A DNA stretch of 63,997 nt, filler included, from Atractiella rhizophila (lineage: Eukaryota): the NCBI GenBank assembly GCA_021432655.1. It is 20 parts of 20 records of this genome, joined end to end, with 100 filler letters (N's around TTAATTAATTAA, not from the genome) between each part and the next. Parts side by side here need not be neighbours in the genome. Positions count along the whole stretch, not along the records: positions 6,540 to 9,700 come from MU272570.1; 19 more parts are not named here. One strand, given 5' to 3'. The notes below the pieces were generated by a model. That model did no database searches and was not told where the DNA came from. It saw only the letters and a list, made by a program, of their open reading frames with translations. Both the position numbers and the translations under genes were made by a program. How positions within the stretch are numbered: position 1 is the first letter of the stretch; every line of letters begins with the position of its first letter. This document shows positions 6,540-12,150 of the stretch, piece after piece.

Positions 6540-6779
6540 AGGTCCCCCATCTCCCCGAGAGCGAGCGCTAGTCCAAGGATGGGTTCTCCAGCTGTTTCTC
6601 CTCGGGCTCAATCACCAGCTCTCCTGCATTCACCTGTTGTACCTCACAGTCCGGTCATGACTGGCGTTGCGTCGCCGCTAACACTATCGTCGGATGCAGT
6701 AAACAAAAGTGGATTATCGAGTCCAGTTTCTAAGGTGGAAGAAGGAAAGGACGTTTTATCAGAAGTAAAGATTGAGTAA
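6540..6779 (+). CDS. 3' end of an unknown SP-rich protein; 5' partial
   Basis: Open frame from the contig edge with many SP motifs, ending ...DVLSEVKIE* and followed by AT-rich 3'UTR-like sequence. Confidence 0.5.
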   Translation, partial: RSPISPRASASPRMGSPAVSPRAQSPALLHSPVVPHSPVMTGVASPLTLSSDAVNKSGLSSPVSKVEEGKDVLSEVKIE

Positions 6780-8444
6780 ACCAAGAATTCGAGTCTTTTA
6801 TGATATTGACAGGGTATAACGAGACATGGGTGGGATGGTTTAAAAGGCACAAATTCAATTTGTCGTGCGAAGCTCAGCCTCGGCTCAATATATGAACAAT
6901 TTCCGTGACTTTTTAATTTGATACAATCAGTTGGTTTTGATGGTTCTTTATCTGTTACCCGCAAGTCTCGTGCGAGGCTGTGGACAGTTTCTCTGTTATT
7001 CTCCTTGTTATATTGTTCCGTAGCAATGGCAAATAGCAATTTTGGCATTTTCATCGGCTCCGCTTTCTCACATAATGGAGCATAACCTTTGACTTACCGT
7101 CACCCTCACAATCCTTCCTTAATAATCAACTCGCATAGAACTGGCTACTCCATGTTGGTATTAGTGATTAGTGATAGAGGGATCTGCAGAATCAATAGTG
7201 CGCGTGGGTAGCGGAGGTCGTCGTCATCATTTGCCAGTGGGGGAAAGAATGTGATGATGCAACGTTTTATTTTTGAGGGTGAGCTATTCAAGTTTGTCTC
7301 GTTTCAAATACAGTGTCACAATATCATTCGTTGCCCACATTATCGAAACGTTTAAACAAGCCTACTGATGGCACAATCGAATTATTTGCATTCTGCCTAT
7401 GAGTGTTCCAGCTCGAAAGACTGTAACAAAACATTGAAATCGAAAGAACTAACGATCCTTCCCCTTGATCGCCTTGACGCTTTACCGCAGACTGAACTGA
7501 CCAGTACTTGGCAATTTGGAGATTACGGCGGCGATTTCGCGAACGTAAACAAGTTTCGCTTTTATAAACAATAGATCAAAATCTTCCAAGTGAAGCTTCC
7601 TCATCCTCAGATCTGACCAGTTCTGACTGCAACTCGACTACAGACTGTGTGCTGACCACTCTTTCGCCTACTTCGTTTGAGGCTGGAGATGCAAAATCAT
7701 TTTATCCGCTCTCCAACAAATCTGTTCTTCAATTCACTCTAACTTTGAATTGAAGGTGAGCCGTAGAACGATTTGATCTTGATACAACGTCAATATAGCT
7801 GCACTACTAAAGGAAGCTATGAAGTTATGACCCAATGCTAAGCTGTTTCCTTTGCCTCAGGGCGTTGGCGTTGGACAATGTATTAATTCTCAGCTGCCTG
7901 CTATCGCTGTCACGTGTATTCTCTGTACGACGTTGCTCAAGGCGCTGACAGTCCGAACGTTCAACGTTCATGATATCGATGACCAGTGACCTGCCTCGCT
8001 TTCGGAGTTGTATCGTGCTTTTGAAGTCGTATTTGGGTCTTATGCGTCTTATGCGCTTTGAGCTCAGCAGTTTGAACTGCTGACTGCTCGTCGATCATCC
8101 ATCAACTTGTCGGAGGGTTTGGGGCAAAAATCGTTTCAAAGGAACTACCTGAACGACACAAAAAGGTCAAGAGGAATGTTTGTGAACAGTGCTGCTTTGC
8201 TGCTAAACTTTGTGAAACTTTTCTAATTCATTTCGCTTAATTTCGCCTCAGGGTTCCTGAATTGGTGTGCAATTGTTTTCAAAGAACACAAACATTCCAC
8301 AAAGCTGGGCCTTTGCGCACACAATAATTTATTCGAGGGCTATAAAGAGGTCGCCCTCCAGGTGCTTCTGAACTCGAAAGAATTGACGATGGAGCAGCCT
8401 ACTATAGTTTTGCTTGTAAGCTCGTGTATCTCTGCTATAATGGG

Positions 8445-8625
8445 TTCACATTCTGCTCAGGGCGAGTTGGATGATGGCTACGGCCTCCTCATCAATTACA
8501 ACTTGGTTGTCTTTCCCCAGGAAACAATCCTCAACGTCTTGGTCAGGCTCCTCGCTATGTCAAGTGAGCTCTCTCCATCCTTCATCCACTCAGTTCTAAG
8601 ATGCCCAATTTACTCGAAGACAATG
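8445..8625 (-). mobile_element. Ty1/copia gag relic
   Basis: Minus frame reads NWAS*N*...IDEEAVAIIQLALS. This resembles the copia gag N-terminal NxxxW ... DxxAxxxIxLxL pattern, with stops. Confidence 0.35.
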
Positions 8626-9380
8626 ACTTGAACTCGTCCCCTTCCACCGGTGATTCTGAAAACTCTTGACCATCCTCCTTTTCTAGCCATACGCCTTTTG
8701 TATCCTTTTTTTCTTTTTTCTGCTTTTCTGCTTTTCTTTTTGCTTTTCACCTTCCCTCTTCCACTTTTTCACCTTTTCTCCTTTGAAATCCATCTACATG
8801 TCTTGGCTCCTCTTTGTTGCACATGGGCTGAATCCACTTCATGTCCCCAAGTACCAATAGGCTGTTCGAGCGGCACGGCGGCACGAGGGATAGACAAGCT
8901 GAAATGTGGGCTCTGCGTTGTTGGTGTGGAAGTGATTAATTGCTGAGTCGCAAACAAGACAAGACATGCACCATATTATTCCTCTGTTCATATCATTAGG
9001 CCCGCCGAAATAGACCCACAACACTATAACAAAGCTCTTGCTGTAGATCCGGCTGGATCCAGGACGTCTTTAAATATGAGGACCATCACCGTGAATGTCT
9101 GATTCCACGTCACGTCCTTCTGGCCACATATTCATATCTACGATCACCCAACAAATCACAACCTCAAGAATAAACTGTCCACATCGTGATCCCAACATAA
9201 AACAGTTATTCAATGCCGTACGATGACGCGACGACAAATTCACGCTGGGCAGAGTTAATTTGAACGCTGCCCTATTCTGAGGGCAGAAGAGCTCTGTAAG
9301 TTGTGGGGACTCTAAATTCATCACATTTCAGCCTCTGTAGGGAAACGTTGTACGTATTGGAAATCTCAGCATTCTACCCA

Positions 9381-9700
9381 TCACCACACAACAGGTAGTT
9401 CGGTAATGCCCACGTCTTTGTTCAGAGGACTATACTTGACCTCTTCAAACGGAATCGCCAATCTAAGGTTGGGAAGGCGTTGCCAGAGCGTTGCTGCAGG
9501 TGCGATGAGCAAAGGCACACTCGCCAAAAACAGGGTGGTTACTCACCGAAAACGATTTCCAGCTCAGCCCGAGCCAGCCATTCTGCAACACATTCATGTT
9601 GACCATATCCGAATCCTAGAGCCTGTTCCTTTCCCCTCTTTCGGTGAAGATCGAATGTATCTGGATCGGGGAAGATGTCTTCATCCCTGTTACCGCTCAT
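9381..9700 (-). CDS. CYP55: Cytochrome P450nor (CYP55 family, fungal nitric oxide reductase), last two exons; 5' partial
   Basis: Exon 9700-9547: MSGNRDEDIFPDPDTFDLHRKRGKEQALGFGYGQHECVAEWLARAELEIVF. GTGAGT...CAG intron 9546-9494 (53 nt, phase 1). Exon 9493-9381: ATLWQRLPNLRLAIPFEEVKYSPLNKDVGITELPVVW*. The heme motif FGxGxHxC-VAE-xLARAEL and the C-terminal YSP..KDVGI.ELPV.W are characteristic of P450nor. Confidence 0.9.
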
Positions 9701-9800
9701 NNNNNNNNNNNNNNNNNNNNNNNNNNNNNNNNNNNNNNNNNNNNTTAATTAATTAANNNNNNNNNNNNNNNNNNNNNNNNNNNNNNNNNNNNNNNNNNNN

Positions 9801-12150
9801 TCAGGATTAACGTTACCTGGAGAGAGGAACATGTAGATGAGGAGTTGGAGAAGAGATGGGGGCGAGATGGGCTGAGTAGACCAGTCGGTGGCCCACTTGT
9901 AGATGATGAGGACAACAAGATATCTTTAACCAATGTCATCAAAAGCGTTCATGCTGAGTAGAGGTAGAGAAAGCATACCCAAATATGCTCTGCATGAACA
10001 AGAACTGGGGCAACCACTCAGCCCAAATTCCCCAGGAATGTTTGAAGTGGATAAAGTTGGGGATCTGGAGGCAAATGGCGAAAGACATGTGAACAACACC
10101 GAAGATGATGGACATTTTCATCTTGAGCGAGTTGGCGAAGAGCAAATAGTTGTCTGCTCCATGCCACAGATGGTCCATTCCGAAAGGGTAGGTATAACCA
10201 GGAACCTTGATCGCTTCCACTGGTCCCTCGCCGTGGTGCTCAGGCCAGACCCACTGGGATTCGGAGAAGGGAAGGGTGAGAGAGAAGATATCGTTGTAAA
10301 GCAGACCCGTCCAGATGGAGAAGAGCTAAGGCATCCAGTTAAACTCAGCCGGCTGTGGACTTGAGGGAGAGCATCATACTTACACCCATGAGGATAATGA
10401 TATACCTTCCGTAGAAGGGCTGGTCCAACAATTCATTACCGAATCCACGAGGGAACCTCTTCTCAACCAGAATCATAGCAGCGGCAGCAAGGAACATGAG
10501 GAAACCGTGTCCGATATCACCAAACATGACAGCGAAGAGGAAGGGGAAGGTGATAACCGTGAAGAGACCCGGATTGATTTCGCCGTAGGTCGCCATCCCG
10601 TAGGCATCGATCAAAGCCTATTCCTCCCCCCTGAGCATTCCAATTTCTCCAAAGGAAGGCAGAACAAACCTGATACCCCTCTGTAAACTTGTTCGTCCGA
10701 TGATATGTCGGCGGCTCCTTCGCGTAGGGAATCTCATGCAAAATGGGCTGGACGCCAGTCCCAGTTCCCTCTGTGGCTCTCCTCAACGCTTCCTTGACGA
10801 GTGGGAGGTCTCGCTTTGGAACCCAACCCTCAGCGCGCATCATCCGTCTCCCCTCGTCCTTCTTCCACAAATTCAGGGTCGCAAAGATCAACTTCTCCTT
10901 CTTCACGGCCGCCCACCAAGCCGAGATCTGCTCTGAAATCTTGACCAATTCGACACGGCGAGTTTGGTCGGTTTGGTACAAGACGGTGGAGAGATCTTCG
11001 ATGCGTGAGGTGATTTCGACGAGCTTTCCCTGTCGTTTGGAGGCGCTCGAGTCGATGGGATAGAGCGTGGCACCTAGAGCAGAAGAGATCTTTCGAATCT
11101 TGGCGACGAGTTCGGAGCCGTGTGCAAAGATGATGAAGACGTTTTTCTTGACCACTTTTTCATCATCACCCTTGCTTGCGGCCGGGTCGTCAATGTTGGA
11201 ATCGATCTATCCACTATAAGGCTCGACTTCCTATAAAGAAATAACGAAAAGCTGACCTCCGTCCAGTTCATGTAGAGATTCCCGCGGAGGACTCTCCACA
11301 GTACTCGCTCAAACGTTTCCATCCTTTCCCTGTCGATGGTTCCGGCAACAAATCTTGAAAACAGTTCTATCAACCTCTTCCGCCGGGAAAGCAGAAATAA
11401 ATACACACTCGATGTCCATCCCTCCTAATTCTCCGCCTCGTTCTTCATCACTCCCACCGCCCAACAATCTTTCCCTCTCTCCCTCCCCTCTTTCATCTTC
11501 GAAAGAAGATCTCATTTCCTCTCTCCTCCCTTCCGCCTCTTTGAAGAAAACGCCTGTCTCCTTCAAAACTCCTCTAGCCTCCTCCAACTCCCTTCTCTTC
11601 TTCACGAGGGCATCATAGCTTTTCTCCATCTCTCCAATCCTCACCTCCAAATCAGAAAGCTTCCCAAATAGCTCGTTTGTCATGTGTTGAGTCGAAGGAT
11701 ACGAGGAATGGAGATAGGAAGTTTGGGAGAACGGTCGAATGGGGATGTTGAGCGCATGCAGTTGCGACGTGAGAAAGCGCAGACGACGCTCAGATTCGTC
11801 CAGCTTGCGGATGTCGGAGACATAGATTCGCTGGAAAGCATTGATATCTGGGTTGAGCTGCACAAACACACCTCAGTTCCGTGTCTAACACCAAACCCTC
11901 CGTTTCGTCGTGAATAAGAGGCTCACATCTTTGAATTGGATTTTATTTAGTTCTCCTAGCTCAGAGACCGTTGCGTGTGCAATCTCAGAGGGCACATAGA
12001 GCTGTATGTCACAAACCTCGTCAGTCACAAAGGTATGTGCCAGGCCAGGAGGCTGCGTACCTGCACTAGTGACATTTCCTCCGAACCTGAAAAGATCATT
12101 AGCGAAGGACATATTTCTGGGAGAGACCTACGGAGGAGTGTCTTTGACAT
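9801..12150 (-). CDS. VPH1: V-type ATPase V0 subunit a; 3' partial
   Basis: The spliced start gives MSKTLLRSEEMSLVQLYVPSEIAHATVSELGEL...LNPDINAFQR (exon 1 12150-12132, exon 2 12086-12061). Later motifs: FERVLWRVLRGNLYM, PPTYHRTNKFT, EINPGLFTVITFPFLFAVMFGDIGHG, YPFGMD..WH, NSLKMKMSIIFGV. Confidence 0.96.

Follow-up and report, generated by a model that had tools for sequence, protein, structure and literature searches.

A transcribed P450nor (CYP55) gene lying across an assembly break in the basidiomycete Atractiella rhizophila

Does the root endophyte Atractiella rhizophila (Basidiomycota, Pucciniomycotina, Atractiellomycetes) carry an intact gene for the nitric oxide reductase P450nor, and if so, from where did it come and what would it do? 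P450nor is a marker gene for fungal production of the greenhouse gas N2O. The question was raised by a gene end at a contig edge in the stretch of DNA analysed here, a window of 63,997 nucleotides made of 20 pieces of about 3.1 kb, which N44-TTAATTAATTAA-N44 linkers join and which do not form a single stretch of chromosome. One piece (positions 6540-9700) is contig C1391 of the genome assembly (G000), with the p450nor fragment at its edge, directly before the artificial linker at 9701..9800. A first-pass annotation had proposed a P450nor gene end here from a spliced minus-strand frame, and had further suggested a basidiomycete host and horizontal acquisition.

Read on the minus strand, positions 9381-9700 hold the final 88 codons (residues 319-406) of a CYP55/P450nor gene that is truncated by the contig edge. 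Exon 10 is represented by its 3' part (9547..9700, minus strand, residues 319-370), which holds the meander and the heme loop and breaks off with the contig at 9700; in the allele on C1493, this exon starts 49 bases more 5'. An ATG at 9700 was rejected as a start codon, being internal Met319. The heme-binding loop FGYGQHEC lies at 9590..9613 (minus strand), with Cys355 of the model corresponding to Cys352 of Fusarium CYP55A1. Downstream of it, splice choice and alignment place a predicted GT-AG intron of 53 nt (intron 10, 9494..9546, minus strand, phase 1 after residue 369), which measures 49 nt in the C1493 allele. The last exon (9381..9493, minus strand) encodes residues 370-406, including Asp396 (Asp393 in Fusarium), and ends with a TGA stop at 9381-9383. 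Eleven GT/GC-AG choices hold the frame open to the stop. Joining the donor at 9546 to the acceptor at 9494 (GTGAGT...CAG) restores the frame, and only this choice links the frame entered at 9700 to the last exon so as to reproduce the peptide first proposed; the ten others delete or replace conserved residues and were rejected. Spliced alignments of the allelic copy chose the same site. The exon 10 part matches the Pfam p450 family at 2.5e-7, and Fusarium CYP55A1 is the best solved relative both of this exon alone (6e-13, against 1.5e-10 for the next protein) and of the last exon alone (9e-9, against 5e-5), scores well beyond chance. A search with the first window exon gave 49 proteins among 54 candidates at E <= 1e-8, with identities of 71-88%, and its named matches were labelled CYP55, nitric oxide reductase or hypothetical. 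A V-type ATPase subunit a gene at window positions 9801-12150 (minus strand) was set aside as evidence on the host, since it lies on the next, unrelated contig and is uninformative about the contig of p450nor.

The 5' part of the gene was sought with a full-length CYP55 query, which gave 12 matches, all on contigs C97, C1391, C1266 and C1493, and no further locus. The 5' exons are found at the extreme end of C97 (109,957 bases), where exons 1-9 occupy G000:C97:108567-109918 on the plus strand, outside the window. The 3' end is present on the other three contigs: C1266 is 99.8% identical to C1391 over 3161 bases, and C1493 is 94% identical to C1391 over 318 shared bases. Since the final 88 bases of C97 are, in an exact overlap, the first 88 of C1493, an intact model could be reached through this allele. 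Spliced alignment of two reference proteins led to an identical open model of 406 codons, with 10 introns of 48-64 nt, two of which have GC donors. The model joins C97 to the C1493 allele; C1391 begins 49 bases past the end of C97, and so the link between the window and the 5' exons runs through that allele. The 88 residues are identical on all three 3' contigs, whose 267 coding bases differ silently at 6 and 1 places; their flanks diverge. We read these contig ends as a heterozygous bubble at one p450nor locus.

The haplotypes differ strongly here: the interval that separates p450nor from the next shared gene end, about 2.3 kb in C1391 and 1.6 kb in C1493, aligns only over a tiny gene. This predicted three-exon gene, convergent with p450nor (window 8389-8626, plus strand; allele L007 1428-1700), encodes 51 residues in the window and 65 in the C1493 allele, with 22 of the first 44 residues shared. 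Its alleles have diverged while the adjoining p450nor protein is identical, and no other genomic copy was found. At the C97 bubble, the alleles stand at depths of about 1:2 in sequencing run X1 (126:281) and 1:2.6 in run X3, and a molybdopterin enzyme is likewise present on three contigs. These unequal depths, together with the three-contig enzyme, may mean that there are three or more haplotypes, or that nuclei occur in unequal numbers.

Four of 24 public runs (X1, X3, X5 and X19) were compared with the end of C97, covering introns 1-9. X1 reads straight through every intron, as DNA would. In X3 and X5, introns 1-7 are missing at the predicted lengths of 51, 61, 64, 58, 49, 48 and 51 nt, both GC-AG introns included. 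An 18-base exon between introns 7 and 8 is present in X5 and X19, and X3, X5 and X19 all exit at the intron 9 donor and continue into a match to exon 10 (27-29 of 30 bases, by eye). The public record describes X19 as a root metatranscriptome and does not list X3 or X5 as RNA, yet the joints in these two are of the kind left by splicing. The p450nor gene of Atractiella rhizophila is transcribed, and the spliced contigs, which attest the presence of spliced RNA and not its level, induction, strand or start, support introns 1-9. The two introns with GC donors, introns 3 and 7 (L022 ~8940-9003 and 9639-9689, on G000:C97), are private to this gene, are spliced in the transcript contigs and flank short exons of 63 and 18 bases.

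The 406-residue model is 63-72% identical to proteins named CYP55; membership of the family is set at 40% identity or more to its members in the legend of Fig. S7 of PMC6161760. The best matches fell inside CYP55 and not CYP105, and CYP55A1 was the top PDB match for both window exons. By every sequence test applied, the protein is a CYP55 member, as the first-pass annotation had it. Actinobacterial CYP105-type P450s are the next-best solved relatives of the family, at far weaker scores (1e-83 against 1e-167, with protein P0008), and in contrast to an intronless bacterial gene, the Atractiella gene has 10 spliceosomal introns, with fungal introns at conserved places.

Fusarium oxysporum CYP55A1 (PDB 1ROM, 1XQD) is the closest point of comparison among solved structures and belongs to the same length class (403 against 406 residues). 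When its residue numbering is transferred through P0008, the equivalents of Lys62, Arg64, Glu71, Ser73, Asp88, Arg174, Ala239, Thr243, Ser286, Lys291, Cys352 and Asp393 are all retained, and most of them are nearly invariant across 123 homologs. The heme-thiolate cysteine of the FGxGxHxC loop (Cys355 of the model) is a cysteine in 123 of 123. Lys62, Arg64, Glu71, Asp88, Arg174, Lys291 and Asp393, which we take to be the basic NAD(P)H channel and the proton path, are all kept. Unlike the Fusarium enzyme, the model has Gly at the position of Ser75, as do 122 of the 123 homologs. Work on the B' helix reportedly found that Gly at this position favours use of NADPH too, which suggests that the Atractiella enzyme accepts NADPH as well as NADH. 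No N-terminal membrane anchor is apparent in the 406 residues (top 19-residue hydropathy mean of 0.75 in the first 60). In the hydride-transfer state, the amide of NADH is held by Ser286, Thr243 and Ala239 (PMC4030948), which correspond to Ser289, Thr246 and Ala242 of the model. The P450nor cycle, as described in the same source, consists of NO binding, direct hydride transfer from NADH, entry of a second NO and release of N2O, with no redox partner. The gene very probably encodes a working NO reductase.

A second difference from Fusarium had already been pointed out, namely HEC in the heme loop in place of the typical HRC. Arg indeed precedes the cysteine in 110 of 123 full-length homologs and Glu in 1 of 123. 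HEC also occurs in 11 of 47 motif-matching exon matches (49 examined, a set biased towards the query), and in Mrakia. Across the proteins compared, HEC is a tolerated variant and does not signal a new function. Nor was it retained as a clade marker: in a 123-column tree, which offers few columns for such a judgement, the 10 HEC rows need three changes and no starred set includes the query.

Fusarium P450nor has a mitochondrial isoform. In Atractiella, an in-frame ATG lies 21 codons upstream of the model start (G000:C97:108504-108566; L022:8504-8566, plus strand) and would add a basic extension of 21 residues without acidic residues, which looks like a mitochondrial presequence.

To what source the gene is owed was approached through introns and trees. 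A metagenome scan gave 79 p450nor loci, of which 43 were modelled; these were picked by eye as long and intron-bearing, to the exclusion of intronless, short and most near-duplicate loci, and are not independent. Counts refer to the loci spanning each place and cover introns 2-10. The Atractiella introns after residues 66 (25/34 loci), 154 (35/41), 191 (29/43), 221 (16/43), 253 (31/43), 306 (21/42) and 369 (intron 10; 32/37) are shared, whereas the two GC-AG introns, after residues 87 and 247, are shared by 0 of 36 and 0 of 43 loci. Seven of nine tested positions are common in other fungal p450nor loci, and two occur in none. An intron at residue 101, common elsewhere (29/36 loci), is missing in Atractiella. 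Some of the compared loci are ascomycete by their nearest named protein: L052 (99%, Hyaloscypha), L108 (96%, Cadophora) and L097 (89%, Arthroderma). The shared positions show descent from an intron-bearing fungal p450nor, and not from a fresh bacterial transfer or a retro-copy. On this intron record, p450nor is judged to have been in the lineage long enough for intron gain.

Trees were built from 79 rows (59 named proteins, 11 unnamed proteins, 8 modelled homologs and the model), chosen from the 123 homologs and 43 modelled loci, with one row of 366 residues added. In the free tree, the model is sister to nine Leotiomycete rows and one unnamed row, with support of 99/90, and four other basidiomycete proteins stand apart from it; its best sequence identities are to ascomycete proteins. 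The conclusion that the donor was a Leotiomycete was nevertheless withdrawn, since a tree pulling the model out of this Leotiomycete-rich clade, a group named after the tree was seen, beat the free tree by 3.7 log units (p-AU 0.548). Constraining the basidiomycete proteins to one clade cost 37.6 log units and was not rejected either (p-AU 0.148). A bacterial outgroup was sought in a scan of genome contigs, which yielded 12 loci at 27-32% identity, none of them CYP105-like; with no fit outgroup, the trees are unrooted. As neither alternative is rejected, a donor cannot be named. Transfer from an ascomycete, which we regard as probable and which would bear out the horizontal acquisition proposed at first, rests on the patchy distribution of the gene and on a larger published test, and not on our own phylogeny.

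The main competing history is vertical descent from an ancestor early in Dikarya or Basidiomycota (or one entry into the basidiomycetes) followed by widespread loss, the function again being that of an NO sink. The single basidiomycete clade that our test let stand is consistent with it. Moreover, no close relative of the model was found (best 73%, end branch 0.31), the gene keeps 7 of 8 common intron positions against 3 in the Helotiales-like loci L051, L052 and L108, and Atractiella has HEC in common with Mrakia. Against this, five basidiomycete proteins are scattered in the free tree, and none of 200 bootstrap trees sets them on one side with the Leotiomycete rows on the other. In the larger data set of Higgins et al., monophyly of the basidiomycete genes was rejected (p 4e-56; Table S2 of PMC6161760), and their survey reports p450nor in only four basidiomycete genomes and in none from Microbotryomycetes, Pucciniomycetes or Mixiomycetes. 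Vertical descent is therefore possible, though we think it rather unlikely. Under ascomycete transfer, the gene would have arrived long ago as intron-bearing DNA of another fungus, most likely an ascomycete, and would have gained the two GC-AG introns after arrival.

What the enzyme would do in Atractiella depends on its partners. No match to nirK was found in the genome with TIGR02376 or with a fungal NirK query from metagenome locus L066, in a search that is insensitive in an intron-dense genome, and none lies beside p450nor on C97 or on the 3' contigs. A family search of the same limited sensitivity found no globin domain. The flavohemoglobin model gave four matches, all to its reductase-domain positions 227-392, and the best (L039, G000:C59:36098-39583, minus strand) lacks a globin part by eye; it was rejected as a flavohemoglobin, being a 527-residue frame with an FAD/NAD reductase C-terminus. 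The N-terminal part of L039 resembles, by eye, a pyridoxamine-phosphate-oxidase-type domain. Multicopper oxidase and nitrite/sulfite reductase, expected positive controls, gave no match either, and the absences of nirK and globin are for this reason weak negatives. They do agree with the independent, splice-aware search (genblastG) of PMC6161760 as regards nirK and flavohemoglobin. Molybdopterin-domain matches were obtained on three contigs, and the one locus examined resembles sulfite oxidase by eye. On four fungal metagenome contigs (L066, L068, L069 and L072), an apparently intronless nirK frame stands directly upstream of p450nor and divergent from it; each is apparently a compact nirK-p450nor pair in a fungus.

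As known for the family, the soluble heme-thiolate enzyme would bind NO at its ferric heme and take a hydride directly from NAD(P)H with no redox partner, and the intermediate would couple with a second NO to release N2O. Since nirK and flavohemoglobin were not found, in Atractiella the enzyme would serve on its own as a sink for the NO that the fungus encounters in roots and soil, and would not be the end of a respiratory denitrification chain, N2O being a by-product of detoxification. On balance, we lean towards detoxification as its main role.

An alternative is that P450nor forms the end of a partial, respiratory denitrification, in which a missed enzyme or low-pH chemistry turns nitrite into NO and P450nor regenerates NAD+ under hypoxia, possibly as a mitochondrial isoform made from the upstream start. 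The presequence-like extension would suit this role, long N-terminal extensions also occur in 24 of 123 homologs, and the nirK searches are insensitive. However, two queries found no nirK, Table S1 of PMC6161760 counts 0, and no nirK stands next to the Atractiella p450nor, whereas locus L066 pairs the two. The RNA contigs start downstream of the upstream ATG, bearing in mind that contig ends do not show transcript starts. We hold this role to be unlikely.

The neighbours of the gene bear on two further readings. Those upstream on C97 were identified by Pfam as Sec2, an F-box protein and COQ5, and others were named by eye. Higgins et al. put forward the hypothesis that p450nor may often serve secondary metabolism (PMC6161760), and the enzyme could accordingly carry out NO-dependent nitration or tailoring, a role suggested for some members of the family, whose nearest relatives are actinobacterial CYP105-type enzymes. 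Yet the identified upstream neighbours are housekeeping genes, no synthase gene was seen among them by eye (the downstream contigs are short), and the residues for NO reduction are retained, which makes such a role very unlikely. Further upstream, two adjacent near-identical frames resembling a NOB1 nuclease gene by eye (G000:C97:87913-89917, minus strand) may be a tandem duplication or may have arisen in assembly.

On C97, 7 kb upstream of p450nor, lies a COQ5 exon that matches a protein named Atractiella rhizophila at 100% identity, with the next named matches at 65-70% (Rhodosporidiobolus, Microbotryomycetes, Sporobolomyces, Rhodotorula and Mixia, all Pucciniomycotina); this identity makes an ascomycete contaminant unlikely. 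The GC3 of the p450nor coding sequence is 0.52, within the 0.47-0.60 of five neighbouring frames, which are rough frames and not curated genes. Its best identities to ascomycete proteins and its split across contigs might suggest that the gene stems from a co-sequenced ascomycete, was mis-assembled or is a dead fragment. This reading is largely refuted and exceedingly improbable, because exons 1-9 share a 110-kb contig with the Atractiella COQ5, the alleles differ silently only and spliced forms appear in three runs from different studies. The p450nor gene is almost certainly a host-encoded CYP55. The basidiomycete host suggested beforehand is upheld by this context and by the spliced introns, as is the case against a bacterial contaminant, made at first from the intron; nor does this evidence assign the gene to a co-sequenced ascomycete, the origin named beforehand as a refutation.

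How much of this was already known? In 2018, Higgins et al. surveyed 712 genomes and recovered p450nor from 167 (PMC6161760), four of these being basidiomycete (preprint 10.1101/301895). Table S1 of the former gives Atractiellomycetes one p450nor and no nirK, napA or flavohemoglobin, and Table S2 includes an Atractiellomycetes p450nor gene. That gene agrees with ours in class, and a profile without nirK, napA and flavohemoglobin fits the weak negatives obtained here; the tables name the class only, and we infer that it is the A. rhizophila gene. The string 'Atractiell' does not occur in the main text of that paper, the gene is not among the alien-index cases of its Table S4, and our literature search found no paper discussing an Atractiella p450nor by name. 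P450nor of the basidiomycete Trichosporon cutaneum (CYP55A4) is reported to have been purified in 2001 (cited in PMC5869400). Databases hold CYP55 names in Mrakia frigida (63% identical to the model, with HEC), Mycena floridula (70%), M. rebaudengoi and Collybia nuda. All five are basidiomycetes and, unlike Atractiella of the Pucciniomycotina, belong to Agaricomycotina; the database proteins do not group with the model in the free tree. The presence of p450nor in Atractiellomycetes, as a class-level count in 2018, and in basidiomycetes generally is thus already known: the rarity in Basidiomycota stressed by the first-pass annotation stands, and the surprise it attached to the finding does not. 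New here are the full model across the assembly break, the transcript support and an intron record that points to an old fungal source, an advance that we consider modest.

Altogether, our results are probably best explained by a single intact CYP55A-type locus of old fungal source, whose product would be a stand-alone NO sink. A bolder reading, which we consider unlikely, is that a root endophyte without flavohemoglobin took P450nor from a co-dwelling, Helotiales-like root ascomycete and uses it as its sole dedicated NO sink, with cytosolic and mitochondrial forms from two starts, to quench plant NO during colonisation. If this were true, poplar and other roots would emit fungal N2O without nirK, with plant signalling, not denitrification, as the driver. 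In one Populus study, A. rhizophila dominated five of the eight soils (PMC6450171). An intact, transcribed copy in such an endophyte, where nirK and flavohemoglobin seem to be missing, makes the fungus a handy test of the role of p450nor, a question raised by Higgins et al.
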